64,000 nucleotides of DNA, from positions 777 to 64,776 of the forward strand of contig JAKQDQ010000042.1 of assembly GCA_029573725.1 (NCBI GenBank), given 5' to 3'. Shown here piece after piece: positions 32,146-54,262 of the stretch (positions are counted from its first letter, which is position 1; every line of letters starts with the position of its first letter). Both the position numbers and the translations under genes were made by a program. The DNA is from Verrucomicrobiota bacterium (GTDB lineage: Bacteria; Verrucomicrobiota; Verrucomicrobiia; Limisphaerales; JADLHS01). The notes beneath the pieces are model-generated. The model was given only the letters and a program-made list of their open reading frames with translations, ran no database searches and was not told the DNA's origin.

Positions 32146-33279
32146 TTAGGTGCCGGGGTGGTCGCCGAAGCAGGTCCCGACGCTGCGAGCACTCGTGATC
32201 CAGGAATGATCTGGCGGCACCAGTTTGAGCCGCCCGGCGACATCCGCGATGGGGACGGCCCGGGTGTCATCTCCCCGCGAGGCCACCATCATGCCGAACT
32301 GGCCTTGCTGAATCAGCCGGACGGCGGCCGCGCCGAGCCGCGTGGCGAGCAGGCGGTCCGCAGAGGTGGGTGTGCCGCCGCGTTGCACATAACCCAGGAT
32401 CGTCACGCGCGCCTCCAGATGGGTCAGTGCTTCGAGCTGCCTGGCCAGACGCAGGGTGTGTCCCGCGTGCGCCTCCTGCAGCTGCAGCAGCTCTGCCTTG
32501 GCCAGGCGTTTTTCGGTTTTGTTTTTGGCCTGCTTTTTATGCCGCACCACGGCGGCGACACGCGCGGCTTCCCGCATGGGCAGGGCGCCCTCCGCCACGG
32601 CCACGATGCTGAAGTTGGTGCCGTATTGTTTGCGCCTGCGGATGGCGGCGGCGACGTTGTGCACGTCGTAGGGAATTTCTGGAATCAAAATCACATCCGC
32701 ACCGCCGGCAATTCCCGCCCCCAGGGCCAGCCAGCCGGCGCGGTGGCCCATGATTTCCGCGATGATGATGCGGTGATGGCTGTGGGCCGTGCTGTGCAGG
32801 CGATCAATCGCCGTGGTGGCGATGTCCAGCGCGGTGTCGAAGCCGATGGCCGTGTCGGTCAGAACCACGTCGTTGTCAATGGTCTTGGGGATCGTGACGA
32901 TGTTCAACCCCGCTTCAATCAGGCGCAGCACGTTCTTATGCGTGCCGCCGCCCCCCAGGCAGACCAGGGCGTCCAGTTTTAATTTGCGGTAGTTGCGGGC
33001 AATGGTGCTGCGCATGTCCCGAATGCGGCCGTTCATTTCCATGGCCTGCGGCTTGTCGCGTCCCGTGCCGAGCACCGTCCCGCCGACGGTGAGAATCCCC
33101 GCCAGACTGCGCTTGTCCAGTTTGATGGTCAGATTCTCGGCCAGCCCGCGAAACCCGTCGCGGATGCCGACAATTTCCATGCCGGCGTCCAGGGCGGCCT
33201 TGCCCGCGCCGCGGATCGCCGCATTCAGGCCGGGACTGTCGCCGCCGGCGGTCAAGATTCCGACTCGTGTTTTGCTCAT
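32146..33279 (-). CDS. pfkA: 6-phosphofructokinase
   Basis: [31 protein letters not shown] and [10 protein letters not shown] motifs of the PFK-A family. Confidence 0.85.
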
Positions 33280-33479
33280 GGATTCAGGTTGTTGCACCCG
33301 TGGAGCCGGGCGGAGGCCGGAACACCGTCCGCGCCGGCCCGTCGCCCCGGCTGCACTGACGGCCTTTGCTTATCAATTTGGGGGATCGAGGTGAAGTCCG
33401 TTTTCAGCGTGGGTTGCGTTTGGCGATGTTTCGTCTAAAGTATGCGCGATTGAGAGTTAACCAAGTGAATTAAGACGCC

Positions 33480-35774: not shown

Positions 35775-36241
35775 GGTTGCCTCACTTGTTGCACGCGTTC
35801 GATTAACAGCCGGCGCGTCGTGAAAAACTCCATCGCCTTCGTCGCCCGCACGAGCGTCGGCTCCCCCGGCCAGCTCGCCCAGTGCACCAGATTCGTGCTG
35901 CGCTCGAGGACCGGTGTCAGTCGCACCCAGGTTTCGCTCTGCACAACCGGTGCGACGGGTTTCGCCTCCCACTCCACCACGTTGCTGAAATCTGATGCGA
36001 TGCCGCTGCCATCCACGGCCGTTGCCGCGAAGCACCAGCGGCCCGGATGCGGTAACACCACCGCTTGCGTCAGCGTCAAACCCGCGTTGGTCACGAAGCA
36101 GTAATTCGCGCCGTTCGTACCGAAATGAATCCGGTAGCTGACGACGCCCGGCGATGGCGACGCATCCCACACGAGCGTGACCGACTGCGCGTGGACCATC
36201 AGCGCACAAGCCAGAATCAAACTTGTGAACAATGGCTTCAT
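35771..36241 (-). CDS. secreted FN3/Ig-like domain protein
   Basis: Signal peptide MKPLFTSLILACALMVHAQS followed by an FN3-like pattern (LVWDASPSPGVVSYRIHFG...). Confidence 0.5.
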   Translation of the reverse strand: MKPLFTSLILACALMVHAQSVTLVWDASPSPGVVSYRIHFGTNGANYCFVTNAGLTLTQAVVLPHPGRWCFAATAVDGSGIASDFSNVVEWEAKPVAPVVQSETWVRLTPVLERSTNLVHWASWPGEPTLVRATKAMEFFTTRRLLIERVQQVRQP

Positions 36242-36756
36242 GTTCTCGTGAGCTGCACCGCGCCGCTCCGGCTCTTCAGGAGCGCGCCGTATTTCGCCAG
36301 GTGCGCCTGGACCAGACGCGGGATAACCGGCGGCGTGTCGTTCTTGTCGTAACCCGTCTGTTCCGTGCCGGTGTTGTGATACTTCAGCCCTTCACCGGCC
36401 GGCGCCGCCGTGCGATCCGCCACGAGGAGTTCCCGCGCCATCTCGCACGTTGCTTCGATGACCGCCTTCGGCACAGAGTCAGCGGGAAGCTCGTCTTCAG
36501 AATCTGGGAGGCGACACCGTCGCCGCGGCCATTGCCGCGCTTGTGCCTCGTCCGCCTTCACGCCGTTGAACTGGTATTGCCCATCAATCAGCCACGTCGC
36601 CATCACGAGCGCCTTCTCCTTGTTGGCCAACGTCGCCGCGGTCCACGCGGAGGCATACAAGTGCCCGTCGTGATACGCGTCGCCATCCGCCGCGTTCGCG
36701 TAAGCGTTGGCATCCACCAGACCGGCTCCGGTTTCTTTGATGAGCGTCAGCGCCAT
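36238..36756 (-). CDS. putative head-tail adaptor (DnaT_2-like phage protein)
   Basis: The N-terminus MALTLIKETGAGLVDANAYANAADGDAYH matches the pattern I associate with phage DnaT-like/adaptor proteins. It sits just downstream of the capsid genes. Confidence 0.5.
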   Translation of the reverse strand: MALTLIKETGAGLVDANAYANAADGDAYHDGHLYASAWTAATLANKEKALVMATWLIDGQYQFNGVKADEAQARQWPRRRCRLPDSEDELPADSVPKAVIEATCEMARELLVADRTAAPAGEGLKYHNTGTEQTGYDKNDTPPVIPRLVQAHLAKYGALLKSRSGAVQLTRT

Positions 36757-38260: not shown

Positions 38261-39271
38261 TCAGTTGTTGTGATCCACCGCCACGATGCGGACGTTCTTG
38301 TTCTCGAACACCCGCGTCCAGTTGGCGGCATTCTCCAGTTCCGCGTTGGTCGGGCTCGTGCCCGCCACCGCCGCGGAATTGAACTTCACGCCTCGCGGAT
38401 GCAGGATGAAGCGACGCCGGTTGATGAAGTTCGTGTCGCTGTCCAACGCGGCTCGCGCCCACTCGACCCCTTCCGTGCCGTGCCCGCCCATCAGCGGTTC
38501 ACCCGCCAGCGGCGCCGCGCCACGGGCGAATGCGCCCGGCCCGAACAGGTAGCTGGTGTAAACCTGACCATCGGTCGTGCCGTTACGCACGGGCAGACCA
38601 TCGTCCACGATGACGCGCCGGCCCTGGAAGGTCTTGATCTGCGCTTTCCCCTCGCTGTCGGGGATGAAGTCAATCAAGTCCAGTTTGCGCAGCGCCGCTT
38701 CGGTGCCCGAGTGCATCGCCACTGCCGTGAGACGGTCGCCCCGGTCGCCGAGCTTCACCGTCGCATCCACGAAGGTGGCGCCGTTGAGCCGCGTCGCGGA
38801 CGACTGGCCCGCGATGCTTTCACTCGCGATGGACAACTTGTTGCCCGCCATCGTCGCCGAGGCGAACAGGCCCTTGAGGCTGGAAACGATCAGGCCCTGG
38901 TCCACCCGAATCCAGTAGTCGCCCACCAGCTCCACCAACGCGCCCATCGGATCATCACCGGAAAGCACCTTGGCCAGGTCATTCACGCTCCACGCATTCG
39001 CGTCCATCTGGATGCGCGCAATGTCCTTGCTCGCGGTGATCTTGTTCACCGTGAGCGGCGCATTGTCAGCCAGAATCTGGCGCGTCGGATTCACATCCTG
39101 CCAGAACGGCATGTCCACCGTGTTCCCACCACCAGCGGCCAGCGCGTCAAAGAACGGGTCGCTCTCGACGATGCCACTCGCACCGAACGCCGACAGGGTC
39201 GCCGTGCGCTCGATCACGTATTTCTCAAACACACTCGGAACAATCACGTCCGAGATTGCCGTCTTAGCCAT
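38261..39271 (-). CDS. major capsid protein
   Basis: 336 aa, immediately after the scaffold gene. The N-terminus MAKTAISDVIVPSVFEKYV and the MPFWQD motif resemble phage coat proteins. Size and position fit an HK97-fold MCP. Confidence 0.75.
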   Translation of the reverse strand: MAKTAISDVIVPSVFEKYVIERTATLSAFGASGIVESDPFFDALAAGGGNTVDMPFWQDVNPTRQILADNAPLTVNKITASKDIARIQMDANAWSVNDLAKVLSGDDPMGALVELVGDYWIRVDQGLIVSSLKGLFASATMAGNKLSIASESIAGQSSATRLNGATFVDATVKLGDRGDRLTAVAMHSGTEAALRKLDLIDFIPDSEGKAQIKTFQGRRVIVDDGLPVRNGTTDGQVYTSYLFGPGAFARGAAPLAGEPLMGGHGTEGVEWARAALDSDTNFINRRRFILHPRGVKFNSAAVAGTSPTNAELENAANWTRVFENKNVRIVAVDHNN

Positions 39272-39326: not shown

Positions 39327-40076
39327 TCAAGCCGTCGCCTTCAGGCGTGCGGCCAGTTGCGGGTCGGATTTCTCAATCTTCATTTGCTCCGTCACGTTCC
39401 ACGTCTCCTTGCGGAAGGGATTACGCACGGACCGGTGGCCAGCCCCACCGGAGCCAGAGCCGGCGGCACCGCCACCAGCGTTTGCTTCGAACAAGTGCGG
39501 CGCGTCGGACACCAACGCCTCCACCCATTCAGCCAAAGTCATCGGCGACACCCCGTCCTTGCCGGTGCGCATCCGCTCGCCGTCGAAAGCTTGGGGAACT
39601 CCGTCCACCAGCTTGAACGTCATTCGCGCTCGCGACGTGATGTCAGGAATTGCGGTCGCCCGCAGCCCGCGTTTCGTCGCCTCGTTCACGACCGCTTGAT
39701 CAATTTGAATCGCTGTCAAACGACCATGCAGGGCATCACGCTCGGCGACCACGACCCTGTGTTGCTTGTCCCAATCCGCGCGGGCCGTCCTGAGCCGGGC
39801 CTCAATCACCTTGTCCACTTCGCCCGCCTTGATCTGCGCCGCTTCCTCCAGCTGGCGCTTCTCCTCGGTAAGCTGCCGCACGGCATCCGGATCAATGCCC
39901 TCAAAGCGTTTCAACTGATTCGCCAGCGCGATGTTGTTCTGCCGAAACTCCTCGTGTTTCGCCCGGTCCACCACGCCTTCCGCATCCAGGACAAACGCGC
40001 CATCGCGCTCGACGTAAAAGCCCGCTTGTTCCGCCGGGATTTCCTCCCGCTTCCCGTATTTGTATTTCAGTGCCAT
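39327..40076 (-). CDS. phage scaffolding protein
   Basis: 249 aa, charged and helical (coiled-coil EEKRQLEEAAQIKAGE...), with a Gly-rich linker and a basic C-terminus. It lies between the portal-proximal gene and the MCP. Confidence 0.65.
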   Translation of the reverse strand: MALKYKYGKREEIPAEQAGFYVERDGAFVLDAEGVVDRAKHEEFRQNNIALANQLKRFEGIDPDAVRQLTEEKRQLEEAAQIKAGEVDKVIEARLRTARADWDKQHRVVVAERDALHGRLTAIQIDQAVVNEATKRGLRATAIPDITSRARMTFKLVDGVPQAFDGERMRTGKDGVSPMTLAEWVEALVSDAPHLFEANAGGGAAGSGSGGAGHRSVRNPFRKETWNVTEQMKIEKSDPQLAARLKATA

Positions 40077-42218: not shown

Positions 42219-42404
42219 GGCTCACCCGCATGTCATCTGCGCCTCACGAACCATCACGAACCCCACCCCTCTTGCCACGAACACACCCGAACTATTTTTT
42301 GTGGATTCCCCCTTGACGGTTTTCACAACCACGACGCGACACAACTTGCGAACGCCGCAATGTCCGTTGGCGGGCAGCGGCGTTCTCCCGTGTCTCCACT
42401 CCGT

Positions 42405-42599
42405 AGCTCTCGATGTGGTGTGTGTGTCAGCTCCGCACAGGCCGCGTAGATGGACGGCGAATGCATCTGCCGCGCCAGCCTGCCGCAGGCGCAACACAGG
42501 CTGTCACGGCAGATGCTTCGCCGGAGGAATTGAATGCGCTGTCGCGCAGCGCGACCCGTGCTCCGCAATGGTGATGACACACACACCACATCGAGAGCT
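42405..42599. repeat. 195-bp inverted-repeat element with perfect 25-bp arms (IR1)
   Basis: AGCTCTCGATGTGGTGTGTGTGTCA (42405-42429) is the exact reverse complement of 42575-42599. The 145-nt interior contains further nested stems, for example GGCGAATGCATCTGCCG / CGGCAGATGCTTCGCC and CAGCCTG / CAGGCTG. Confidence 0.85.
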
Positions 42600-42813
42600 G
42601 CTACGTTACGTTCGCAGTCACTGGCTGCGCTGGCAGGGCAGCATTGCCAGCTTCTATTTCCAGCGCGTCACCCAGCCCGTCCAGTTCTGGGTCGCGTGCG
42701 GGCGTCCACCCCAGTTCGCGCCCCGCATCCCGTGGTGGCAGCCGTTCGTCTGGCAGTATCTCGTCATCACTGGCTGGGTGCGGCCATCGCGCCAGCCACC
42801 TTGGGCAGCGTGA
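42568..42813 (+). CDS. hypothetical Trp-rich small protein (weak call)
   Basis: 81-aa frame (MVMTHTPHRELLRYVRSHWLRWQG...) with very high third-position GC, better than the antisense ORF 42601..42861. Its ATG lies at the inner edge of the right arm of IR1. Confidence 0.25.
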   Translation: MVMTHTPHRELLRYVRSHWLRWQGSIASFYFQRVTQPVQFWVACGRPPQFAPRIPWWQPFVWQYLVITGWVRPSRQPPWAA

Positions 42814-42901
42814 GCCGCTTCGTGGCTCACCGTCGCCGTGAACGATATCCACCTTGAGCATGGCGTAAGAACGGAAGTTTTGGCACGCTGCGGATTGAGC
42901 C

Positions 42902-43453
42902 ATGTGCACCGATTACGAAGGCCCAAAGCCGGAACAAAAAGCAGAGATCGAGCGTAAAATCCGATGTGAGGTTTTCGGCTTTGTCCCGCGTGCCCGTGTT
43001 CGCCCCACTGACCCGGCGCCAATCATCATTCCGGTGGAAGATTCTTTGGCCTGCTCCGAAATGCGGTGGGGCTGGACTGTGCCGTGGGACAAAGCACCAT
43101 TGGTCAACGCCAAGAGTGAAACCCTCACCACGCTTGCCACGTTCAAGCCCCACTTGGATCAGCGCTGTCTGATTCTCGCCCGCAGTTTCAAAGAAGGCGG
43201 CGCGCAATTTCACCAATCCGGATGGGGCGTGTTCTGTCTGGCCGGTCTCTGGCGCGAGGAATCCAGCGGCCCGCGCTTCGTCATGCTCACCACCACACCC
43301 AGCGAATCCGTCGCCCCCTTTCACAATCGGATGCCGTTTCTGCTCCGGGAAGAACAATTCCCCGACTGGTTGCGCGGCGATTACCTCAAAGTGCTGGCCG
43401 CACCGGACAAGTCGCCGCTGGAGAAATTCCAGAAGCAGCCCGAATTGTTTTAG
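42902..43453 (+). CDS. SOS response-associated peptidase (SRAP/YedK family)
   Basis: It starts with MC (the catalytic Cys2) and has the conserved NAKSET and HNRMPFLL motifs. 183 aa. It is on the strand opposite to the structural genes. Confidence 0.8.
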   Translation: MCTDYEGPKPEQKAEIERKIRCEVFGFVPRARVRPTDPAPIIIPVEDSLACSEMRWGWTVPWDKAPLVNAKSETLTTLATFKPHLDQRCLILARSFKEGGAQFHQSGWGVFCLAGLWREESSGPRFVMLTTTPSESVAPFHNRMPFLLREEQFPDWLRGDYLKVLAAPDKSPLEKFQKQPELF

Positions 43454-43513
43454 TTCACTCGCGCCGTCCCGCTTTTCAAGCAGTCGAGACCGGTGAACAC
43501 CAATCGTCCTTCG

Positions 43514-43726
43514 TCACCATCGTCGTTTTGGACCAACGTAGATCGCGTTACACCGACAACGCGCCTGGAATGCTTTTGGAATCGGCGACCGCATCTTGAT
43601 CTCGGCCACGACACGGCATTGTTGGCAAATCAGCAACGCCACGAAATCTTCGGATTCGTAACCGACACTGACCTTCACGCGGGAAGTTTCACACGCAGCC
43701 ACGTAAACTCGTTCTTCGCTGGCCAT
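43514..43726 (-). CDS. small zinc-ribbon-like hypothetical protein
   Basis: 70 aa with a non-degenerate composition and CQQC...CRC cysteine pairs. Its third-position GC is lower than the host's. Confidence 0.35.
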   Translation of the reverse strand: MASEERVYVAACETSRVKVSVGYESEDFVALLICQQCRVVAEIKMRSPIPKAFQARCRCNAIYVGPKRRW

Positions 43727-44742
43727 TTCAACGCGCCGGGTATTCGGTCGCCCTCGAAAGACAAAATTGGCCCGCTGCGCTCGAAGGGAAATTAGTTCGC
43801 GCTACATGGCTCGCCGGTGCGGCTCGCACTTCGCGTGCTCAACCACCACGAGGCGCGCAACCATTCACGGTTTCCATGTGCGAACGTCACGCTCGCGGCC
43901 CTTTCGCTCCAGCGCCCACGCATCGAACGCCGCAGGTTGTCGAACGTCGGTCGTGCATTCCAACCGTTCAGGTTGGCGGATGTTTTAGGCGCGCTGTCAG
44001 GCATGGGGATGGAATGACGCCGGCTCGTCGCTTCGCTCCTCGAATTGCAAGGTGGCCCGTGCGGCACGCACCAGCCTGGCTTCACAGAGCGGACACTTGC
44101 GCTTCGGCGCGGCTGCCCCGCTTCGCAGTTCAGCCGACCTCGCGCCAGGTGACGCGGTTCGGGCAGGCGCTGGCCGCCAGATGATCCTCACCGCTTCCGC
44201 ACTGTTCCGCCCGCGCCACTGGCCGGACTCGTCAGCTTTCCGCCCGCTCCATTCGCTGCCGCACTCCGCTTCGCCGACTTCGCTGGATGCTCTCGCTCAT
44301 TCCGACGGCCGCAAACTGCCGAGACCGGCACGGACAGCGGTGCTCCCAAAAACGCAAGACGCCGAAGGCCGCGATGCTCCGCATGTCGCCCAGGACAAGA
44401 CCACCGGAATAGCCGTGAGCCCGCCCAGCTTTCGCTGGCGCGAAACTGGCCGGACTCACTGATGGTGGCCATCCGCAAGGATGTCTGAGACTTCGTCGTC
44501 AGGCTGCGGTCCTGCTACCGATCCACACCCTGATCCCCTGGTGGCCGTCCGCAAGGACCTCCGCTCTGCCGTCGAAGACTCAGAATGGTTGGCTTCGCGT
44601 TGGCGCGACTGCGCCCGGTGGCCGGTGACGCTGTCACCCGGCAGACCCGGCCAAAGGCATCGGCTCGCGGCGGATTGGCACGAACGACCGGCGAGGCTTA
44701 CGGTGCTCGTTCCTGCGCGCCTGTGGCCTCGCCTTGCGTACC

Positions 44743-44886
44743 GGGGCGACACACAACACATATTGTGCGTTCGTTCCCTCGTGCCTCGGTCACACCTTTA
44801 TTCCTGATCGCACCGACACTCCTCACTCGTGAGCCGCTTCGGTGCGGGAATAAAGGGTCGCACAATATGGCGTTGTGTGTAGCCCC
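44743..44886. repeat. 144-bp nested imperfect inverted repeat (IR2)
   Basis: GGGGCGACACACAACACATATTGTGCG (44743-44769) pairs with CGCACAATATGGCGTTGTGTGTAGCCCC (44859-44886). Inner stems are ACCTTTATTCC/GGAATAAAGGGT, CGCACCGA/TCGGTGCG and CTCAC/GTGAG. Confidence 0.8.
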
Positions 44887-45370
44887 GCTGCTTCACTGTC
44901 ACGCTGATTGCTTCCTGGATTCCCCATCCGGCACGCGACTGCCCTCGTCGCGTGGCAATCACCGCGCCAGCTCGCAGGCATCCTTCGCGCCAACACCGCC
45001 GCTCCGCATGATGGCCAGTGCGGCACGCACCAGCCGGGTCTGCTTGCCCCAATAGCTCGCCGGTACGGCTCGCACCCCCACCCAACCCCAATGCTCGACC
45101 CCTTCCGTCCCCAAGGGGTCGTCGCGCGCAAAGTAGTTTGCTCGCTTCGCTGGTTGGATCGCGTGGCTGCAGGATGCAACCACGCGCCAATGGAAGGCCG
45201 GACTCCGGCTTTTCAGGTCCGGCTTTTTCTGCTCCGCGTTTCTCTCCATCGCCCTCCCGGCCTCGCCGCAAGACCAGCCCGCCCACTCGTGGCGACCTTC
45301 TGAAGACCACTTCCACGGGGGAGGGCTGGCGGCTCGGCGTTGTCGTGAAGGGCGACGGACAGAAGACGCA

Positions 45371-45949
45371 ATGCAGAGCAGAAAAAAAAAGACCATGAAA
45401 ACAAATAAACAAAACTATGAAGGGGCTCGGGAGCAGATCCGCAATACTCAGCAGACCAACACCAGCACAGTTCGACAAGAAGTTGATGCAGTGGTGGCCA
45501 AGTTTTCCACCCCGACCGGTGGAGACGTGACCGCGCAGGACATCGCGGAGCAGAAAGCCCGTGATGCGAAGCAAGCCAAGGTTGATAATCGCTTGCCGAT
45601 TGATTCCCAGGCACGGAAGCAGAACCGGACGCTTCCGACCCCGAAGGTGTTGAACCTTTTGTTGACCACGTTGCCGGACGTTTACCGCGCCGCCGAGGTT
45701 GTCGGGAAATGGGTTTGGGTGACGTTCAAGGAGCAACCCGCCGCCGAGATTCGGCAGCACTTGGCCCAGCTTGGCTTCCACTGGAATCGTGAGCGGCAGA
45801 CATGGCAGCACCCCTGCGGCCAGTTCCGCTTGAGCAGCAACAACGACCCGCACGAGAAGTATTCCAGTTACTACCCCGCCCGGATTCGTCGCAGCACCAA
45901 AGCACAGACCCCGGAGATGATGGCCAGTGGCGCTGCCACCGCCGCGTGA
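45371..45949 (+). CDS. hypothetical protein (phage/plasmid accessory type)
   Basis: 192 aa. The C-terminal segment VGKWVWVTFKEQPAAEIRQHLAQLGFHWNRERQTWQH resembles a small domain I have seen on plasmid/phage accessory proteins. An alternative start is at 45395. Confidence 0.5.
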   Translation: MQSRKKKTMKTNKQNYEGAREQIRNTQQTNTSTVRQEVDAVVAKFSTPTGGDVTAQDIAEQKARDAKQAKVDNRLPIDSQARKQNRTLPTPKVLNLLLTTLPDVYRAAEVVGKWVWVTFKEQPAAEIRQHLAQLGFHWNRERQTWQHPCGQFRLSSNNDPHEKYSSYYPARIRRSTKAQTPEMMASGAATAA

Positions 45950-45993
45950 TTCAACCGGGGCGGGCAGCACCCGCCCCCAACTCTCCCAAGATT

Positions 45994-46209
45994 ATGACGA
46001 ACTCCTACACCCTCCGAGCCGGTGACCTTGTCGAGTATGCCGGCCAGCCGTGCCGCGTGGTTCGCGTGAGCGAATCCGCCGCCCTTGTCGCCGTGATTCA
46101 AAAGCCGCGCACCATCACCCCGCGCTTTGGCAAGCCGGTGACCATTCAACCACGCCCCAAGCTGGAGCGCATTTCCCCAAACTCCGAAATCCCCATCCTT
46201 AACCGCTAA
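45994..46209 (+). CDS. small hypothetical protein
   Basis: 71 aa (MTNSYTLRAGDLVEYAGQPCRVVRV...), SH3/KOW-like beta pattern, tightly spaced with its neighbours. Confidence 0.4.
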   Translation: MTNSYTLRAGDLVEYAGQPCRVVRVSESAALVAVIQKPRTITPRFGKPVTIQPRPKLERISPNSEIPILNR

Positions 46210-46213
46210 CACT

Positions 46214-46675
46214 ATGAACCAAGACCAGAATATCAATCCAGAGGAAGCGCTCCGCGCCGTTTTCGGCGAACCGCAGCAGATCGCCGACGGCATCACCGCG
46301 TTCGGCCCGGTCGTTTACAGTTACACCCGCGCGCAGGCCGTCGCCGACGGCGTGCAAGTCGAAGTCACCAAGACCGCGCAGGAAGCCGGAATCCGCTTCC
46401 CGGTTTTTCTCACCCGCACCGTATTCGACGCCTACGTTGCCGTGCCGCCCGACGTGACCGGCCAAGACGAAGCCGGGCGACTCTGGGACATCGTCTGGAT
46501 GTTGCGCTTTGCCATCCAGCGCACCAGCCGCGGAGTTGCGCGCCTGCCGTTCGCGCTCTACGTGCGCAACGACAACCGCGCCGCCAAGCTCATCAAGTTG
46601 GTCGCCGTCGCTGGCCCGCTCGACATTGACGACCCATCGCCCGCCATCACCGTGATGTTGCCGGACGAAGATTGA
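46214..46675 (+). CDS. hypothetical protein (possibly DUF6573-like plasmid/phage accessory protein)
   Basis: 153 aa with a clean, non-degenerate sequence. The family assignment is from memory only. Confidence 0.5.
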   Translation: MNQDQNINPEEALRAVFGEPQQIADGITAFGPVVYSYTRAQAVADGVQVEVTKTAQEAGIRFPVFLTRTVFDAYVAVPPDVTGQDEAGRLWDIVWMLRFAIQRTSRGVARLPFALYVRNDNRAAKLIKLVAVAGPLDIDDPSPAITVMLPDED

Positions 46676-46721
46676 AACCACCACAGGCCGCGCTCCGCTC
46701 CGGGGCGCGGCCCTTTGACCT

Positions 46722-47057
46722 ATGACTTCCCAATCATTTCTTGGATTCGAGCAGCAGACCCGCGACGCCGAACTCGCCGCCGCCAATGCCAAGCTACAGG
46801 CCAAGCTCGCGGAGCAGGCCCAACGCGCCATCCGCAAGCGACAGGAGGAAATGGCCAAGAACACCCGCCGATGGAAGCGCGAGGAAGCCACGCGCAAGCG
46901 GAACGACATCCTCGTTGCTCAGTGCGGCATCAATTGGTATTCGCGCCGCCGCGATGCGGGCATCTACTGGACGCACTGCAAGACTTGCGGCCAGTTGCTC
47001 CACTACACCGACGACAAAAACGCGAAGCCCCAAGTTTGCGCCGGTCGCAAATCGTAG
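46722..47057 (+). CDS. coiled-coil + zinc-ribbon hypothetical protein
   Basis: 111 aa with a charged helical N-terminus and C-terminal C..W...HCKTCG...C cysteines. Confidence 0.45.
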   Translation: MTSQSFLGFEQQTRDAELAAANAKLQAKLAEQAQRAIRKRQEEMAKNTRRWKREEATRKRNDILVAQCGINWYSRRRDAGIYWTHCKTCGQLLHYTDDKNAKPQVCAGRKS

Positions 47058-47132
47058 CCCCCCCATATTTTCCAGCCTGCCGCGATGACACCCTCGCGGC
47101 TGGAGGCAGGTGCGGCTCGCACAAAAATTTTT

Positions 47133-47172
47133 CGCCTGACGGCTCGCGCTCGTCAGGCGAATCCATTTTTTC
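47133..47172. terminator. bidirectional rho-independent terminator between the plus-strand island and terL
   Basis: CGCCTGACG (47133-47141) pairs with CGTCAGGCG (47151-47159). ATTTTTT follows on the plus strand and AAAAATTTTT precedes it, which gives a T-run on the minus strand. Confidence 0.55.
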
Positions 47173-47233
47173 GGCTGGGTCTTGCGCCGACCCAGACCCG
47201 CGCCAAAGGGTGGCAACCCTCTGGGCACTGTGC

Positions 47234-48631
47234 TCACAGCCCCCGCAACTTCCGCTCGCTGATCGTTCGGGTTTTCGTCGCCACCAAGTAGCGGAGACAG
47301 TCCGCGCAGTCATCGCCCCCAACGCCATCCTCGTCCGCGTCCACCTTGAGCACGTCCTCGGGCCGGTTTGGATCGTGTTGGAGTGCCGGCAACGTCTCAA
47401 TCAGCCGCCCGCAACGGGCGTGAATGAATAGTGTCGGCCTGATGCCTCCCTCAATATCACCTAACCCTTGCATAACTTCTGCCCAACCGTTCACCCGGTC
47501 GGTGTTGGCTGGACGCAGCGTGATACCCTGTTTCGCATATTGCGCGGCAATCGTCGTCCCGTCCGATTGCCGGCTGAAAACATCCGCGCCGGCCACGAAC
47601 CGTTTCAGGTCCGCCAGCGTCAATGCCCGGTCGCCAATCTTGTGCCGCGCGAGCATGGCCTTGATCGCCGCCGCGTGCCGTTGCGGCAGCCACAACCGCT
47701 CCGCGTGTTCATCCACGACATAGGTGTTTCCATCGCCATCGCGGCAGCCGAGCAGGCAGACCGTGTAATGGACGTGGCCGTAGTCAAAGGCACAGAACCA
47801 CTCCACGGCCCGCGCATCGTCGAAGTCCTCGACGACGTGAACGTCGCGCCGGAACTGCGTGAAGAACTGACCGGCGGCAATGTCCCAATCACCATCGAGC
47901 CAGGCGCGGCGTTGCCAGCCCGTCAGACCTTCCAGAATCCGCCGGTATTCCGGGTTGTTGAACGCATTGTCGTCGACGCGGGCCGGAATGAAGCGCGTTT
48001 CCGTCTCGCGCCGCTCCAGCATCGGCTGGACGAATCGCTTGCGATACCACGCATGACCAACGCCGCCGGGATTCGTGGTGGAGTAGATGCGCGGACGCCA
48101 GTTTGGCTTGGACGACCGGCAGCACGTCGTAATGTCTTGAAACTTCCGGCTCGTCAGTGTGGTTGCTTCCTCGATCCCAATGACATCGTATTCCAAGCCC
48201 AGGTAGGCATCCACGTCCCGGTCATTCTGGAAATGCCCGGCAATGATGCGCGAACCATTCGCGAAGGTGAGGATGCCGCGGAACGCGCTGAACTCATGTG
48301 GCAGCCGGTTGAACAGCCGTTGCCGGAGATCCTCGAAGTGCTCCAGGTTCGCTTTGCCCACTTTGCGGAGCAGCAGACATTTCAATCCTGGCACACGCTG
48401 ACAATCGTCGGCGCCGACTTGGGACAACATCCAGTGCGACTTGCCGCCGCCACGAGCGCCACCGTAACCGACTTCCGTCGGCCCGTCGGGGCGGTCGCAC
48501 AATCGGGCGGCAGCACTGGCAACCAGTTGACGCTCTTGCAACCACAATTTCGCGGCCACGAAGTTGCGGGTTTGATCCTCGGGACAGCCCGCCGCAATCG
48601 CGGCGTTCAGGAAAATTTCACGCTCGTTCAT
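47234..48631 (-). CDS. terL: terminase large subunit
   Basis: 465 aa with Walker A-like GGARGGGKS, Walker B LLLRKVG..., the ATPase coupling motif GIEEAT and a C-terminal RNaseH-like nuclease region (FDYGH..., DADEDG). Confidence 0.9.
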   Translation of the reverse strand: MNEREIFLNAAIAAGCPEDQTRNFVAAKLWLQERQLVASAAARLCDRPDGPTEVGYGGARGGGKSHWMLSQVGADDCQRVPGLKCLLLRKVGKANLEHFEDLRQRLFNRLPHEFSAFRGILTFANGSRIIAGHFQNDRDVDAYLGLEYDVIGIEEATTLTSRKFQDITTCCRSSKPNWRPRIYSTTNPGGVGHAWYRKRFVQPMLERRETETRFIPARVDDNAFNNPEYRRILEGLTGWQRRAWLDGDWDIAAGQFFTQFRRDVHVVEDFDDARAVEWFCAFDYGHVHYTVCLLGCRDGDGNTYVVDEHAERLWLPQRHAAAIKAMLARHKIGDRALTLADLKRFVAGADVFSRQSDGTTIAAQYAKQGITLRPANTDRVNGWAEVMQGLGDIEGGIRPTLFIHARCGRLIETLPALQHDPNRPEDVLKVDADEDGVGGDDCADCLRYLVATKTRTISERKLRGL

Positions 48632-49224
48632 GGCTTCGCCTCCTGGACGTCAATCACCGGTTGCTCCGGGACAGCTTCCACCTTCGCGCTATACGCCTTG
48701 CGGATGGCAATCTCCCAATCCACATCAATCGTCGCCTTCACCGTGGTGTTGACCTCCTTCACTTCTGTCGGCATCCCTGCCGCCAGCCGACCGAGCTTGG
48801 TTGCCAGTTCCAGCACGCGGGCGATGCCTTCCAGCGTGCCGCACTTGGCTTTGTTCTTTTCCCACCGCGCCAACATTTCATCCGCCAGCGCGATTAGCTT
48901 CTTGTGCCGCTGCCACTCGGCGACTTTCACGGCTTCATGCACCTTGTTCCAATCGACCGCCTTTTCGAGCGCCAACCCTTCGATGGCTTCGCGCTCGATG
49001 GTCGCCAGGTGCGCGGCGTGAGCTTGCACCCGTGCCGGCCAGTCGAACCGCCGCGACCAACGTTCGATCATGGTCTTGGACTTGCCGTGCTGGACGGCCA
49101 CGACCGCCAGCGAGCGTTGTGCGCCAAGTTCTAAGTAGGTTTTGAAAGCCGCGAACGCCTTGTTGCTCTCGCGGGGTTGCTGTTCAAATGACAACGCTGC
49201 TGTTTCTTGCTTGCTCGATTTCAT
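48628..49224 (-). CDS. terS: terminase small subunit (HTH type)
   Basis: The start MKSSKQ at 49224 and N-terminal AFAAFKTYLELGAQRSLAVVAVQHGKSKTMIERWSRRFDW match the HTH pattern of small terminases. Its stop overlaps the terL start. Confidence 0.65.
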   Translation of the reverse strand: MKSSKQETAALSFEQQPRESNKAFAAFKTYLELGAQRSLAVVAVQHGKSKTMIERWSRRFDWPARVQAHAAHLATIEREAIEGLALEKAVDWNKVHEAVKVAEWQRHKKLIALADEMLARWEKNKAKCGTLEGIARVLELATKLGRLAAGMPTEVKEVNTTVKATIDVDWEIAIRKAYSAKVEAVPEQPVIDVQEAKP

Positions 49225-49378
49225 GGTCTTTTTTTCCGCTGGCCCGTCCGGCTCGGACCGTCTCGCCTTAACGGCAGTAGTGGAATGGCAACCCGACCCA
49301 AGAAGGGTTGCCTTCCCGACTGCCTGCTTTGCTGGTGTAGTCCACTTTCTATTTAAGGGATGTTGGACTGTTGGACTG

Positions 49379-50416
49379 CTACTCGTTTCCGACCCAATAC
49401 AGCCCGCCGCCACTCTTGATTAAACCGTTGGCCACAAGCCGTTTGAGGTAGTTTGCCACGCTGCTCCGGCTCATCTTGAACTCGCTTTTGGCGGCTTCGA
49501 CGATTTTGGCGAAGGTTTTGCCCTCCGAACTCATCACGGCATCCACAAATTCCTTGTCCGAACACACCTTGTTTTTGGACTGTGGCCGGCGCAGTGCTTC
49601 CGGGTTCAGGTCGCTGGCGACCTTCATCAGGGGATACTCCCAGCCGACCACGAACTCCGGCAGTTGCGGCAGGTTGCGGAGGATGCTGGTGACGGTGAAG
49701 TGATCCGGCTCTTCGTGCGGCGTCAGCACGACGATGGTGTCGGGGTCGCGCGCCCACGCGCCTGCACCGCTCATGCGGTCCATCGCCGACTTCGCCGTGC
49801 TATCGCCCTTGGCAAAATGGTGCGCGACCACGATGGCCGCGCCGGTCTTCTGCGCCATTGCTTCAAACTCGTTCATCAGGCTGGCGATCTCGCCGTTGGC
49901 GTTCTCGTCGCGGTTGCCCAGCACCTTGTAAGCGGGGTCGAGGATGATCAGACCGAACTGATGCTTGGCGAGTTGTTCCTCCAGCTTGGGCCGCAGCAGG
50001 GTGATGTCGGCATTGTGCCCGCGCAGATTCCAAATGTGCAGCGTCTTGCCCATCGCCTTGCACTCGGGCCGCGCCCCGCACAACGCATTGATGCGTTGCG
50101 CCACCGCCCAGGTGTGCAGCTCGAAATTGATATACACCACCGGCAGCTTGGCGCATTGCCGTCCCCACCACGGTTGCCCGCTCGCCACGGACAACGCCAG
50201 GTCCAGCAGACACCACGACTTGTTGCTCTTGCTCGTCCCGCCGAGGATCATCTTGCACCCTTGGTGCAGGATGCCCTCGATGATGAGCGGCGGCGGTGGC
50301 GTCGCCACGGCGCACAACTGCTCCAGCGTCAGAATGTCCGGCAGCGGCGGCGCGACCGCGCCCAGGTCCACCGCCGGGTCAACCTGCTCAGTCGGGGAAT
50401 AGGTTTTGATCTCCAT
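49379..50416 (-). CDS. RepA/DnaB-like replicative helicase (AAA_25) with C-terminal wHTH
   Basis: Walker A ILGGTSKSNKS, Walker B LIILDP and a RecA-like core, with a C-terminal MarR-like helix (VANYLKRLVANGLIKSGG). Confidence 0.7.
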   Translation of the reverse strand: MEIKTYSPTEQVDPAVDLGAVAPPLPDILTLEQLCAVATPPPPLIIEGILHQGCKMILGGTSKSNKSWCLLDLALSVASGQPWWGRQCAKLPVVYINFELHTWAVAQRINALCGARPECKAMGKTLHIWNLRGHNADITLLRPKLEEQLAKHQFGLIILDPAYKVLGNRDENANGEIASLMNEFEAMAQKTGAAIVVAHHFAKGDSTAKSAMDRMSGAGAWARDPDTIVVLTPHEEPDHFTVTSILRNLPQLPEFVVGWEYPLMKVASDLNPEALRRPQSKNKVCSDKEFVDAVMSSEGKTFAKIVEAAKSEFKMSRSSVANYLKRLVANGLIKSGGGLYWVGNE

Positions 50417-50417
50417 G

Positions 50418-51407
50418 CTAATCCTTGAGCCAGACGATGCGTTGCAGTTTTCCGTCCCGGTATGCGCCGGGCACGCGCACCGGCTGGGAATAGGTGAAAA
50501 GTTTCGGGTCGCAGCCGAACACGGTCAGCACGGCCTTGAGTCGCGCCTCGATCCGCCTGTCGCGGGGTGCGTCCAGCCAGCCGTGGAGCGACTTCCCGGC
50601 GGTATCAATGATGGCGTGCAGGTTGAAATGCAGCCGGCGATTCAGATAGGCGAAGATCGCGCCAACTTCATCCTTCGCCAGCGTGTCCGACTCCACGACC
50701 ATGAACCGCGTGCCGTTGCAGTTCGCGTTGCTGCGCTGAAAACTCCCCGGCTTGAACGATGAGCCGCAGGTGAAGTTGCCCATCACCGGCCCGATTTGAT
50801 ACCAGTCGGCTATCGGCCGGAAATGCGTCCGATGTTCCGGCCTGCCCGAACTGTAAATGTCGCCGATCCACACATGACAATGCGCCGGCCAGAGCTTGAG
50901 CCAGGTGCGGAACTGGTCTTCGGCGTCGCGCTCCGCTACTAACAGCGGCGAGTCCTCCAATATCTGCGCGAACGGCCAGTGGAAATTCTCGAACAACTCC
51001 GGTTTGAACCGCTCCGCCGTCACCGTCAGCGTTTCCAAAATCAACTGCTCGCCCGCGTCGCGGCCCTCGGACTTGGCGCGAGCCTGGACAACCTCACGCG
51101 GCAGCACCGTGCCGCTCGCTTGCAACACGTCACCGCTCCGCAAAACTTTTCCGCCCGGTAACGTCAGCGCCCACGGCGACGCGTTCAACCCGCGCCGCAA
51201 TCGCCGGTTGGCTTCCGCCACCGCCGGGGCGCACGAGGCGTGGAAACAGTAAATCGTCGGCGCTCCATCCACGTTGATCCGGCAGTCTTTCTTGCCGGTC
51301 TTGTGCGTGTGCAGCGACTCACCCGGACAGCGGCAGAAGCCGCTGACCTCGCTCTGCCAGTCCACCGCGCCGACGATGCTGGCGGCAATGTGCCGCGGGT
51401 CAGTCAT
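50418..51407 (-). CDS. putative DNA primase (Zn-finger + AEP/Prim-Pol-like core)
   Basis: The start MTDPRH at 51407 is followed by an N-terminal CPG...H.H...C...CFHASC zinc motif. The acidic VVESD and SLHGW motifs resemble AEP motifs I and II. It lies directly upstream of the helicase. Confidence 0.5.
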   Translation of the reverse strand: MTDPRHIAASIVGAVDWQSEVSGFCRCPGESLHTHKTGKKDCRINVDGAPTIYCFHASCAPAVAEANRRLRRGLNASPWALTLPGGKVLRSGDVLQASGTVLPREVVQARAKSEGRDAGEQLILETLTVTAERFKPELFENFHWPFAQILEDSPLLVAERDAEDQFRTWLKLWPAHCHVWIGDIYSSGRPEHRTHFRPIADWYQIGPVMGNFTCGSSFKPGSFQRSNANCNGTRFMVVESDTLAKDEVGAIFAYLNRRLHFNLHAIIDTAGKSLHGWLDAPRDRRIEARLKAVLTVFGCDPKLFTYSQPVRVPGAYRDGKLQRIVWLKD

Positions 51408-51792
51408 GGTGACCGCCCACCAGTTGCGGCGTGACTTTGCGATGCCACTCGTCGTGGCACGGCTTGCACAGATAATCCTTCGGCCACCGGTCCGCCTCGT
51501 CCTTGCCGAAGATCGCCTGCGGCGACCAATGATGTTCTTCCGCGCCCCGAGCCCCACATCGGGCGCAGCGCGGTTGATCCATGCGCTCGACGACGCGGAC
51601 GAGCGACAAGTCCACGCCGTTGGTGGCGAGGGTTTCCTTTGGAATCCAATAGCCACCGTTTTTGCTCGCCGTCCACCAACGACATTCCAGACACCACCAG
51701 CCAAAATGCTCGGCGGCGCTGGCACTCAGCCGACAGGAAATCTCCTGGCGGGTGTCACGCGCACAACGCGGGCAACGGCGGTTTCGTATCAT
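51400..51792 (-). CDS. HNH-type zinc-finger nuclease-like protein
   Basis: CPRC...CLEC...CARCG cysteine pairs and EEHHWSP...CKPCHDEWH (HNH-like His-Me finger). Confidence 0.5.
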   Translation of the reverse strand: MIRNRRCPRCARDTRQEISCRLSASAAEHFGWWCLECRWWTASKNGGYWIPKETLATNGVDLSLVRVVERMDQPRCARCGARGAEEHHWSPQAIFGKDEADRWPKDYLCKPCHDEWHRKVTPQLVGGHHD

Positions 51793-52040: not shown

Positions 52041-52127
52041 AAATTTCTCCCTCTCCGCCTCGGTCGGGGAGAGGGATAAAGGGTGAGGTGTCGCTAGGCA
52101 TTTGTCGCATCCGTCCTATTTGTCCTA
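52041..52127. repeat. REP-like hairpin repeat, copy A
   Basis: TCTCCCTCTCCGCCTCGGTCGGGGAGAGGGATAAAGGGTGAGGTGTCGC...ATCCGTCCTATTTGTCC is shared with copies at 53186 and 53806. Confidence 0.75.
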
Positions 52128-52994
52128 CGCCGTCAGCACCATTTCGGCGCTGGCTTTGGCTGCCGGGTCGTAACCCTTTTCGATCACCCACAACCGGTGC
52201 GCGGCGACGAACGCCCGCCACCCGGTTTCCATTTCGTCTTCGGTCCAGACGTGTTCGATTGGCGCGGACGGCTCGACCGAGTTGACGATGAGGTTCATGC
52301 ACCGCACCGGCTCGCCCAGCGCCCGGCGATACGCCGCGAGTTGGTAACACCAACTCTTGTAAGGCTTGGGTGGCACAGGCGACCCGCCTGTCGTTCCGGG
52401 CGGCCCGCCCGGAACTTTCCCTCCCCGTTGCGGAAACTTCATCGTCTTCAAATCCACGAGCGTCAGCCCGTGAACCGGATGCTCGATGAGCAAGTCCGCC
52501 GTGCCGGCGTAACCCCATTCGGGATGCACCAGCACCTTCTCGGTCCAACGCAGCACGAGCGCGTTGGCCTGATACCAGTCGCGGTATTTGTTCAACCAGG
52601 CCGAGTGCAAATCCGCCCGGTCCACTTCCAGCGTGTGCGCGATGCGTTCCGCTCCGGCGTGAAACGCCGTGCCGAAATCCGCCGCGCTGTCGCGGGTCGT
52701 CTGCGAATCCGCGACCACCCGCCGGGCGAAATCGTCTTCGCTTTCGCCGGGGTTGCGCGGCAGCGTCAACGCCGCCATCACCGCTTGCTCTTGCAACCAG
52801 GCCGTGAGTTCCGGCTTGGCGATGACGCCGAGGATGTTCGTCACGCTCGGCAGCAGGCCCAGCTTGCGGGCATCCCGCAGCGTGGTCGGGCGCATGGTGG
52901 CCGTCTGCAAAGACCCCTTGAGGGACGGGACGGTGTGCAACGGCACACCATCCCGTTGATACCAATGCGCCGAATCTGGTGAAAATAGCTTCAT
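52125..52994 (-). CDS. PD-(D/E)XK family exonuclease (phage RecB/Cas4-like)
   Basis: GYAGTADLL...LVDLKT...YQLAAY motifs (D, D/ExK, QxxxY), 289 aa, inside the recombination module. Confidence 0.7.
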   Translation of the reverse strand: MKLFSPDSAHWYQRDGVPLHTVPSLKGSLQTATMRPTTLRDARKLGLLPSVTNILGVIAKPELTAWLQEQAVMAALTLPRNPGESEDDFARRVVADSQTTRDSAADFGTAFHAGAERIAHTLEVDRADLHSAWLNKYRDWYQANALVLRWTEKVLVHPEWGYAGTADLLIEHPVHGLTLVDLKTMKFPQRGGKVPGGPPGTTGGSPVPPKPYKSWCYQLAAYRRALGEPVRCMNLIVNSVEPSAPIEHVWTEDEMETGWRAFVAAHRLWVIEKGYDPAAKASAEMVLTA

Positions 52995-53120: not shown

Positions 53121-53735
53121 TCAAAATCCGACTTCGGGATCGAAGTCGCCAGCGGGCGGCGTTGTCGCCGCGCTGCTTTTGGATTCCCCTCCCTCCCCGC
53201 GCTGGGGAGAGGGTTGGGGTGAGGTGCGCGGCGAAGCCGCATTGGCCACAGGCGCTGCCTGTTTTGCTTTCCATTCGGCGTAACGCTGGCGCGTCGCCGC
53301 CGGATCGTAAGTGCCGCTGGGCGTCACCTTCCTGGTCGGCTTGCTCACCGCATCAATCGCGGCGTAAGTCTTGCCGCTCATGTTCTGCTGGTGACTGATG
53401 ACCAGCGTGCAACTCGCGCCGATGAGCTTGGCGAGATCAATCGTCTCGCCCGGCGTCACCGGACGCCCCCGCCACTTGCCCAGGAACTCCGCGAGCTTCG
53501 CCTTCGGATGCAGGCTCGCCGTGAAGTTCTTCGACACCGTGCAGGGTTTGCCGTCGTCGGTCTTCTGCTCGCTCTCGAAAACGAGCTTCACCTTGTTGAC
53601 CATCTTCTTGACCCCTTGAAACTCCGTTTCAACGAGGCCCATATCCATCACATCCACGCAGCACGCGGGATGGATGCCTTCGGGATGCGGCTTGAAGTCG
53701 CCGCCGTCTTTGCTTGTCAGTGTGAGGTTACTCAT
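53121..53735 (-). CDS. DUF669-like phage protein with SSB-style acidic tail
   Basis: Start MSNLTLTSKDGGDFKPHPEGIHPACCVDV (DUF669-like N-terminus), and the C-terminus ends GDFDPEVGF. The linker PRTSPQPSPQRGEGGE is encoded by REP-like repeat copy B. Confidence 0.55.
   Translation of the reverse strand: MSNLTLTSKDGGDFKPHPEGIHPACCVDVMDMGLVETEFQGVKKMVNKVKLVFESEQKTDDGKPCTVSKNFTASLHPKAKLAEFLGKWRGRPVTPGETIDLAKLIGASCTLVISHQQNMSGKTYAAIDAVSKPTRKVTPSGTYDPAATRQRYAEWKAKQAAPVANAASPRTSPQPSPQRGEGGESKSSAATTPPAGDFDPEVGF
53186..53228. repeat. REP-like hairpin repeat, copy B (inside a CDS)
   Basis: CCCCTCCCTCCCCGCGCTGGGGAGAGGGTTGGGGTGAGGTGCG. Confidence 0.7.
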
Positions 53736-54262
53736 GTGCTTTGTTCTTTCTGTTTTTGGTTTTTGTTTTCCGTGGTAGGGACGTGCTGCTGCGCGTCCCA
53801 AATCTTTCCTCCCTCTCCGCCTCGAACGGGGAGAGGGCCGGGGTGAGGTGTCGCATCCGTCCCATTTGTCCCCTTCGTCCCTTCATACCCCGTGCGGCTC
53901 GCACCCGGCGACAGTTCGCCGCGCAGCAGGCGGAAGAAGGTTTCGGCGCGCATCGTGATCAGCCAGGGGGAGCGATTGCGGCGGTGCGCCACAATCCACG
54001 CCAGTTTCTTGGGCTTCGCGGCGTCAGCCGCATTGAGTCCAGACCCCGTCTGGTCGCGCTCGGCCTGGGCGCAGGCGTCGGTGAGGTTCAGGTTTTGCAC
54101 CCGCTTCACCTCGACGTGCAGCCACGCCAGCGCGTCGCTGACCACGTCGGGCGAATCCGGCGAGCCGCTAAATTGCTGCCCGCGCCTTGCATCGAATCCA
54201 TTTTCCCGAAGCAAGGCGGCAAACTCCCGTTCACCGCGTTTTCCTTTGTCTCGGCAATTCAT
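53732..54262 (-). CDS. Holliday-junction-resolvase-like / PD-(D/E)XK endonuclease
   Basis: KGKRGEREFAALLRENGF...SPDVV...LHVEVKR pattern (E, D, ExK). The C-terminal 50 aa are encoded by REP-like repeat copy C. Its stop overlaps the next start (ATGA). Confidence 0.55.
   Translation of the reverse strand: MNCRDKGKRGEREFAALLRENGFDARRGQQFSGSPDSPDVVSDALAWLHVEVKRVQNLNLTDACAQAERDQTGSGLNAADAAKPKKLAWIVAHRRNRSPWLITMRAETFFRLLRGELSPGASRTGYEGTKGTNGTDATPHPGPLPVRGGEGGKIWDAQQHVPTTENKNQKQKEQST
53806..53872. repeat. REP-like hairpin repeat, copy C (inside a CDS)
   Basis: TTCCTCCCTCTCCGCCTCGAACGGGGAGAGGGCCGGGGTGAGGTGTCGCATCCGTCCCATTTGTCC. Confidence 0.75.

Follow-up and report, generated by a model that had tools for sequence, protein, structure and literature searches.

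The 64,000-nt window analysed here (contig JAKQDQ010000042.1, from a Verrucomicrobiota bacterium) is GC-rich (~62%) Verrucomicrobia genome DNA with a small prophage-like element. The subject of this report is the 5-kb gap (42219-47233) between the large-terminase gene terL and the portal gene of that element. The gap is family-wide and holds a conserved operon, long hairpins that take in start codons, a folded element free of open reading frames (ORFs) and slots whose genes are exchanged; of this description we are confident. We further propose that the gap is functionally similar to the establishment (leading) region of conjugative plasmids, and put the statement as a whole just short of an even chance. 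Under this proposal the hairpins would gate early or accessory genes (the DUF6573 type, SRAP and defence or anti-defence cargo), while the large folded element, which carries C-GNA-G mini-hairpins in arrays, would act as a single-stranded nucleic acid of terL polarity. Coordinates of all features are collected in Table 1.

The split between terL and portal is a family property

The first-pass annotation placed the end of terL at 47234 and the start of the portal gene at 42218, coordinates that hold, and described the 5 kb between them as an accessory island splitting two normally adjacent genes. This description does not fit the relatives. A terL scan limited to one genome per species yielded 80 loci, nearly all in metagenome-assembled genomes (MAGs) of Verrucomicrobia subdivision 3, with 71-86% terL identity to the window copy; several loci often come from one MAG. 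All 29 relatives with both genes have 2.0-6.9 kb between terL and portal. The split therefore did not arise in this genome but is ancestral and universal within this prophage family. The alignment with relatives suggested as a check bore out the expected variation in island content, but found terL and portal adjacent in none of the 29. L001, L008, L017, L033, L043 and L052 are all from one MAG (bin-3030), and BP6.bin43 has four contigs with the element. Distinct copies within one MAG have terL genes 76-86% identical, representing either many related prophages per genome or merged strain variants.

The gap contains plus-strand genes, long hairpins, an ORF-free stretch and a terminator, and its genes are all antisense to the head genes. 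Most of the non-shared ORFs in the 29 gaps occur in a single locus, among them AIPR, HEPN_RiboL-PSP, N6/N4 methylase, DUF4238, Peptidase_M78 with a helix-turn-helix domain, DUF2283, DUF6448 and PurA-like genes. Locus-specific genes at a fixed position are the mark of a moron hotspot. The earlier idea of a cargo hotspot stands for these variable genes, but much of the island (about 60%) is conserved core, namely the orf192-DUF6573 operon and the folded module. Minimal gaps, for example that of L038 (2.0 kb), have little beyond D-D2, the core domain of that module, and an ORF containing the Trp-rich domain described below.

The variable slot of the window is occupied by SRAP, an assignment confirmed by the PF02586 match. 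The protein starts MC, keeping the catalytic Cys2, has the HNRMP motif and, at 183 aa, does not reach the length of the profile. Its counterparts number only two and are distant (29-36% identity), and a HEPN_RiboL-PSP gene takes the SRAP slot in the closest relative (L035). Beside SRAP, within the window-specific segment, lies a candidate 70-aa ORF (43514-43726, minus strand) of ambiguous codon-position GC (0.58/0.48/0.56); it has no real homologue in the fetched loci, the sole tblastn match being a 20-residue stretch in L035 and L078.

The ORF-free stretch is a conserved, base-paired module

Protein coding was rejected for the stretch from 43.7 to 45.4 kb. There tblastn matches fall in all six frames, coding periodicity is absent apart from two weak, low-coverage signals, codon-position GC is flat for every ORF drawn, and indels between close relatives have arbitrary lengths. 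The same stretch recurs as collinear blocks in ~20 loci by blastn, and in more by profile search, at 65-85% DNA identity; it is conserved yet not protein-coding. The ~1.6 kb previously noted as lacking convincing ORFs do lack a coding signal, but are neither empty nor decayed, being the best-conserved resident of the gap. We find it scarcely credible that the stretch is functionless decayed cargo, whether pseudogenes or insertion remains. Indels of many lengths occur even between close relatives and the window has lost most of its tandem units, as such a history would allow, but collinear conservation in dozens of loci at these identities, strong covariation and the lack of a conserved reading frame all argue otherwise.

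RNAalifold, run for each strand on a 15-sequence alignment of 43865-45020, predicted 141 pairs on both strands. Of the cells counted, 96.5% are paired, compared with 84.4% in shuffled alignments and 32-39% after displacement of the partners by 1-3 columns. Compensatory pairs number 68 of 141, against 36.8 ± 3.3 in shuffles, and the covariation score is 0.322 (0.107 in shuffles), a value reached by none of 500 shuffles. In relatives the interval from block B to block C contains 2-5 tandem copies of a ~38-nt unit made up of a conserved linker, a variable-but-complementary 5-bp stem, a 3-nt bulge and a 3-bp stem with a triloop; the window retains only a degenerate remnant of this array. The module thus has what is expected of a large RNA: more than 500 nt without an ORF, multiple helices and covariation. 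Rfam 15, searched in E-value mode with permissive filters, gave only noise in the window from 41.5 to 48 kb and no match across the module of L013, L015 or L018. The noise included matches to miRNA-precursor and isrG models, which were discarded and reflect only the long hairpins.

An nhmmer profile of D-D2 matches at least 52 of 86 sequences, and the orientation of the domain with respect to terL never varies. In ~20 loci D-D2 starts 90-900 nt past the terL stop, after a small hairpin and a G-rich tract and with no terminator between. The window keeps the small hairpin and tract at 45070-45120, and here the orf192 operon intervenes between terL and the module. Of everything in the gap, the folded element is therefore the oldest and most constant part. 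A metagenome scan with a degenerate pattern, of whose 120 matches only ~22 are real, revealed copies of which some are not beside terL. D-D2 occurs outside the terL context at L122 6939-7184, L203 7676-7926, L101 558-801 and L107 8187-8418; in L122 and L203, two metagenomic contigs, DnaG-type primases (~1000 aa) adjoin the module. The neighbours of other such copies are a methylase with a ResIII helicase (one copy) and host ligA and major facilitator superfamily genes.

According to one rival explanation, the ORF-free element is transcribed in terL sense as a novel large structured noncoding RNA, 0.6-1.2 kb in length. It would form a 3' extension of the terL message in many relatives and would be akin to ROOL, GOLLD and OLE, with the repeated hairpins as protein-binding sites. 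That the folded element is a large structured RNA of this kind is a real possibility, though the balance is against it. The multi-domain architecture, the covarying long-range helix and the 68 compensatory pairs are all in keeping with an RNA, as are its placement in ~20 loci just behind terL, in the strand of that gene and uninterrupted by a terminator, and the G-U pairs making up ~6% of cells in the minus-strand prediction. The module also behaves as an autonomous unit, found in other mobile-element contexts, and is conserved more strongly than the neighbouring cargo. Yet it matches no Rfam family even with permissive filters, and in the window a terminator and the antisense operon separate it from terL, with no promoter found. 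Its consensus is also without GNRA tetraloops, having instead C-GNA-G triloops of the sort typical of stable DNA hairpins (PMC13037366, PMC3201870).

Loop motifs point to the terL-sense strand

The clearest indication of which strand folds comes from the loop motifs, which mark the terL-sense strand, the template of the gap genes. Across 27 modules, N-C-GAA-G-N' mini-hairpins number 105 on this strand and 10 on the other; the terL-sense strand also has all six GCGAAGC copies of the 42.4-45.2 kb segment; and the loop variants stay within GNA (GAA, GTA, GCA and GGA). C-GNA-G and GCGNAGC form extraordinarily stable DNA mini-hairpins (PMC13037366, PMC3201870), and GCGNAGC mini-hairpins mark priming or promoter sites on single-stranded DNA (ssDNA) in G4, RSF1010 ssiA and N4 (PMC13037366). 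The module therefore shares with ssi hairpins their strand specificity and their GNA or GNNA mini-hairpin caps. Folding energies of the terL-sense strand are also the lower ones (module -221 versus -169, hairpin E -69.6 versus -48.0, hairpin H1 -140 versus -127), and the complementary strand of hairpin E folds better in 22 of 22 loci; since the terL-sense strand is G-rich overall, this is weak evidence. As in Frpo-type promoters, all genes are templated by the folding strand: the island genes are on the plus strand, and loop motifs and energies favour the minus strand.

The strand bias also bears on whether the folded element is a double-stranded DNA site (pac, a replication origin or a recombination site) that proteins read as duplex. 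In favour of such a site, the element adjoins terL in most relatives, contains tandem repeats of variable number and has short GTGCGGCNCGCAC palindromes flanking its blocks. We nevertheless judge this reading improbable, as duplex sites are not expected to show compensatory changes, a helix whose arms lie 300 nt from each other or a 10:1 bias of the loop motif to one strand, and the NGO0469-family initiator gene has its own structured region elsewhere in the element. That the folded element acts as ssDNA, providing hairpin promoters or priming sites of the Frpo or ssi type, is possible, at somewhat under an even chance; between the DNA and RNA readings we lean slightly to DNA, with the rest of the probability going to other readings.

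Hairpins H1 and E enclose start codons

Folding-energy z-scores for each strand and a minimum free energy (MFE) scan of the whole 64-kb window identify three long hairpins in the gap, H1, D and E, where the first-pass annotation had two. Their z-scores range from -5 to -10 and they are among the few MFE outliers of the window. Two of them are large stem-loops directly upstream of coding sequence, the arrangement of Frpo-type promoters before operons: H1 precedes the Trp-rich ORF and E precedes orf192. The Trp-rich ORF was missing from the earlier list of plus-strand genes, which its coding periodicity (p = 1e-25) shows to have been incomplete; it has tblastn matches in 16 loci. H1 (z = -7.9 plus, -10.1 minus) also covaries, and its 29-nt apex is identical in 7 loci otherwise ~70-80% alike. 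Hairpin E (z = -6.2 plus, -7.6 minus) adjoins orf192 in every locus. Compensatory pairs make up 20 of its 53, and 94.9% of its cells are paired, compared with 85.9% in shuffles and 44-49% with slid partners. In L013 (14040-14990) and L014 (8400-9280) an H1-type hairpin and the Trp-rich ORF, instead of lying beside the portal gene, separate block A from block B as an insertion, and hairpin and gene therefore move as one piece.

H1 and E could instead act in plus-strand mRNA, as 5' leaders that hide the start codon for translational gating or RNase III processing, with no connection to ssDNA. The leader of lambda N is the model for such an arrangement. The start codons at 42568 and 45395 do lie inside the stem bases, with conserved pairing, and the hairpins always travel with their gene; the plus-strand folds are significant too (z = -6.2 and -7.9), and three plus-strand positions alternate between G-U and Watson-Crick pairs. 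We consider a leader function unlikely all the same. The complementary strand folds better in the window and, for E, in all 22 loci, though that strand is G-rich; more plus-strand positions (5-6 versus 3) alternate between Watson-Crick and A-C; and the same design is present on conjugative plasmids, where ssDNA promoters are expected.

The plus-strand operon, its terminator and the portal-side control region

orf192, orf71 and the DUF6573 gene recur in most loci, and the operon that they form with orf111 is present in ~45. Mismatches against relatives are strongly 3-base periodic (p 1e-15 to 1e-133) in orf192, orf71, DUF6573, terL, portal and the Trp-rich ORF. Because of such periodicity the four small plus-strand ORFs originally drawn at 45371-47057 are real, with the start of orf192 corrected to the ATG at 45395, where ATGAAA is invariant in 16 loci. 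orf192 has no Pfam match and a weak match to the ZorC C-terminus (7e-5). Its predicted structure, of fair quality (predicted local distance difference test score, pLDDT, 66), gave no fold match by Foldseek against the PDB (best E = 0.45). orf71 is better conserved than terL (up to 97% versus 71-86%), yet has no match in any family library. The DUF6573 family has 4597 homologues; the structure model of the window protein (pLDDT 44) is unusable. Searches of PDB sequences gave no match. In the window and its nearest relatives the operon separates terL from the module; in L018, L072, L003 and L077 it lies beyond the module.

The terminator after terL, reported as bidirectional, is canonical on the plus strand. 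On the terL strand its T-run comes after A5, a non-canonical arrangement that failed the terminator scan. No sigma-70 promoter consensus (TTGACA/TATAAT) was found on either strand of 41.5-48 kb, this consensus being that of E. coli, which may not be that of Verrucomicrobia. The suggestion that the head genes need their own promoter is plausible: a CGTCAA motif with an AT-rich block and four GTTCG(T/G)G repeats, ~60-110 nt upstream of portal, are kept in many loci, and the downstream head genes are most likely served by a promoter of their own just upstream of portal. The repeats lie between the CGTCAA/AT-rich block and the portal start, and may bind a putative late regulator.

A parallel with the leading regions of conjugative plasmids

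DUF6573 genes occur in 237 plasmid records, of which 136 are conjugative; the 50,697 phage records contain none. On plasmids they lie in one-directional small-gene arrays beside genes of type IV secretion systems (T4SS), or with ArdC-like, ParB-like, DUF3560 and RadC genes; through DUF6573 the gap thus has a gene family typical of leading regions. In pP33-1 and pSB102 a hairpin of ~200 and ~275 nt, respectively, directly precedes the DUF6573 array. The first ATG in pSB102 is within the hairpin base, and the template-strand fold is the stronger one. Hairpins E and H1 have the same design as these plasmid hairpins. Plasmid genes upstream of DUF6573 were considered as counterparts of orf192 and rejected, not being homologous. 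Large stem-loops upstream of leading-region operons in F and IncI plasmids are ssDNA promoters, active only as ssDNA (PMC11541004, PMC12672017).

We propose, tentatively and at noticeably less than an even chance, that the head-gene block of this prophage family carries a counterpart of the leading region. It would comprise hairpin-gated establishment genes of the DUF6573 type, swappable defence or anti-defence cargo and a folded element of 0.6-1.2 kb, not described before, that acts as single-stranded nucleic acid of one polarity and would be either a new class of large RNA or the first large promoter or priming array of the ssDNA type in a double-stranded DNA phage.

Several points weigh against this proposal. 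The genes of the element include those for terS, terL, portal, scaffold, capsid and adaptor, from which it follows that its DNA is packaged double-stranded. In the subset of window ORFs that was scanned no relaxase or T4SS was seen, nor is there any sign of a single-stranded stage. By the E. coli consensus there are no -35/-10 boxes in hairpins E or H1, nor conserved boxes in the 3' arm of E. The 13-bp helix closing a 300-nt three-way junction resembles an RNA domain more than any known signal in ssDNA, and the ssi and Frpo elements that are known span 40-330 nt, compared with the 1.15 kb of the module. Where no terminator parts terL and the module, read-through would yield an RNA of the right polarity. 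The overall G-richness of the terL-sense strand inflates its folding energies, and the wobble-pair strand test is mixed, with D-D2, block B and hairpin E favouring the minus strand and blocks A and C the plus strand. The related loci are non-independent samples, and DUF6573, orf192 and orf71 have no known function.

The folded element is the most interesting part of the gap. Large folded noncoding elements with such covariation are rare, and each of the earlier ones (ROOL, GOLLD and OLE) has founded research of its own; the present element has no match in Rfam and is abundant in mobile elements of Verrucomicrobia. If the module does act as DNA, a tailed phage would be using hairpin promoters or priming signals of the kind found in conjugation and in ssDNA phages, and the logic of plasmid leading regions, in which the first genes are expressed on entry, would extend to phages. 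The cassette of hairpin and DUF6573 gene common to this phage family and conjugative plasmids is also of interest, linking DUF6573, with its thousands of homologues, to a testable context. Finally, D-D2 beside terL is a practical marker for cargo slots with defence and anti-defence genes.

Other features of the element

No tRNA or tmRNA gene was found. The palindrome GTGCGGCNCGCAC occurs in 9 copies versus 2.0 expected, mostly within the island, with copies at 43817, 44059, 45018, 45063, 47110, 51801 and 53892. Copies flank the module blocks as direct repeats of 24-33 nt (44047-44079 with 45006-45038, and 43806-43829 with 45052-45075), and some are present or absent among close relatives, resembling small insertions or recombination scars. 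Outside the island, the segment 52921-53220 is the sole plus-strand folding-energy outlier of the window. It overlaps the 3' end and downstream region of the minus-strand NGO0469-family initiator gene, and from this position it may be the replication origin of the element.

Table 1. Features of the terL-portal gap, the prophage-like element and its surroundings in the 64-kb window.
Feature	Coordinates	Strand	Remarks
Host phosphofructokinase gene	32146-33297		
Head-tail adaptor	36238-36756	minus	
Major capsid protein	38261-39271	minus	
Scaffold protein	39327-40076	minus	
Portal, 496 aa	40728-42218	minus	phrog_145, E = 1e-125; DUF4055
Divergent control region	42230-42325		four GTTCG(T/G)G repeats at 42245-42292 (portal sense), AT-rich block, CGTCAA/TTGACG motif at 42313-42318
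Hairpin H1, ~200 nt	42403-42601		3' arm covers ATG 42568; apex 42475-42503 invariant
Trp-rich ORF, 81 aa	42568-42813	plus	coding periodicity 0.20/0.17/0.40, p = 1e-25
Variable cargo slot (SRAP and ~240 nt unique to the window)	42837-43689	plus	no DNA homologue in close relatives
SRAP, 183 aa	42902-43453	plus	PF02586, 6.4e-21, above cut-off
Folded module, ~1.15 kb (core ~0.3-0.6 kb)	43865-45020	minus	
Block A	43880-44050	minus	
Block B	44084-44345	minus	
Degenerate tandem-hairpin unit	44365-44425	minus	
Hairpin C	44484-44584	minus	11/18 pairs compensatory
D-D2 core domain	44675-44993	minus	29/44 pairs compensatory in 17 sequences
Long-range 13-bp helix closing D-D2	44675-44687 with 44981-44993		
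Hairpin D	44742-44887		enclosed by 13-bp helix
Hairpin D2	44888-44977		enclosed by 13-bp helix
Small hairpin and G-rich tract	45070-45120	minus	blastn matches just after terL in L029, L045, L046, L076
Hairpin E, ~190 nt	45212-45400		base contains orf192 start codon
orf192, first operon gene, 184 aa	45395-45949	plus	NCBI model 184 aa
orf71, small protein	45994-46209	plus	up to 97% aa identity in relatives; clear coding periodicity
DUF6573 protein, 153 aa	46214-46675	plus	PF20213, 4.5e-19
orf111, last operon gene	46722-47057	plus	homologues of 42-53% identity in ~10 loci; gene-like codon-position GC
Intrinsic terminator closing the operon	47131-47161	plus	convergent with terL; 12-bp stem, 7 GC pairs, then T-run
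terL, large terminase, 465 aa	47234-48631	minus	PHROG 2, 2.5e-29; PF03237, Terminase_6N
terS	48628-49413	minus	
AAA_25 helicase	49379-50416	minus	
Primase-like ORF	50418-51725	minus	
Exonuclease	52125-52994	minus	
Replication initiator, NGO0469 family	53121-53801	minus	

Comparison with known systems

Several known types of element were considered and are not supported. Integron attC cassettes do not match hairpins that are 5' and overlap start codons, and no IntI integrase was found beside the island; an ORF-less group II intron has no Rfam intron match; a CRISPR-like or anti-CRISPR RNA array is at odds with repeats that have no spacers and with stems that differ from unit to unit; and, for a replication origin, the initiator gene lies elsewhere in the element.

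Moron hotspots in late operons resemble the gap in their fixed position, varying content, defence-type cargo and own terminator. Unlike them, the island is mostly conserved, is antisense to the late genes and splits terL from portal in every member of the family. ROOL, GOLLD and OLE are, like the module, longer than 500 nt, ORF-free, rich in covarying helices, carried by prophages or mobile elements and of a function not obvious from context. The module differs from them in having no Rfam match and no GNRA tetraloops or other RNA tertiary motifs.

The ssi and mini-hairpin sites of G4, RSF1010 (ssiA and ssiB) and the N4 early promoters are, like the module, strand-specific and tandem, with GCGNAGC or C-GNA-G caps (PMC13037366). 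By analogy, the module might serve as a set of primase-recognition sites, a suggestion drawn from its adjacency to DnaG-type primases in two metagenomic contigs; the element itself encodes a primase-like ORF and an AAA_25 helicase. Known signals of the ssi type, however, are 40-150 nt long and belong to replicons with a proven single-stranded stage, whereas the array of the module is embedded in a far larger fold that includes a long-range helix.

Leading regions differ from the gap in several respects. The host of the gap is a tailed prophage with terminase and portal genes, in which no relaxase, oriT or T4SS was seen; its hairpins have no recognisable -35/-10 boxes by the E. coli consensus and hold the start codon inside the stem; and its 1.15-kb folded block has no counterpart in the leading regions described. 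The likeness lies in the overall layout: the leading regions of F, ColIb-P9 and pESBL (PMC11541004, PMC12672017) also consist of one-directional small-gene arrays with large stem-loops closely upstream of operons, a stronger template-strand fold and defence-related cargo nearby. DUF6573 itself is shared, such arrays being carried by pSB102, pP33-1 and plasmids of Xanthomonas, Cellulomonas and Thermobacillus.

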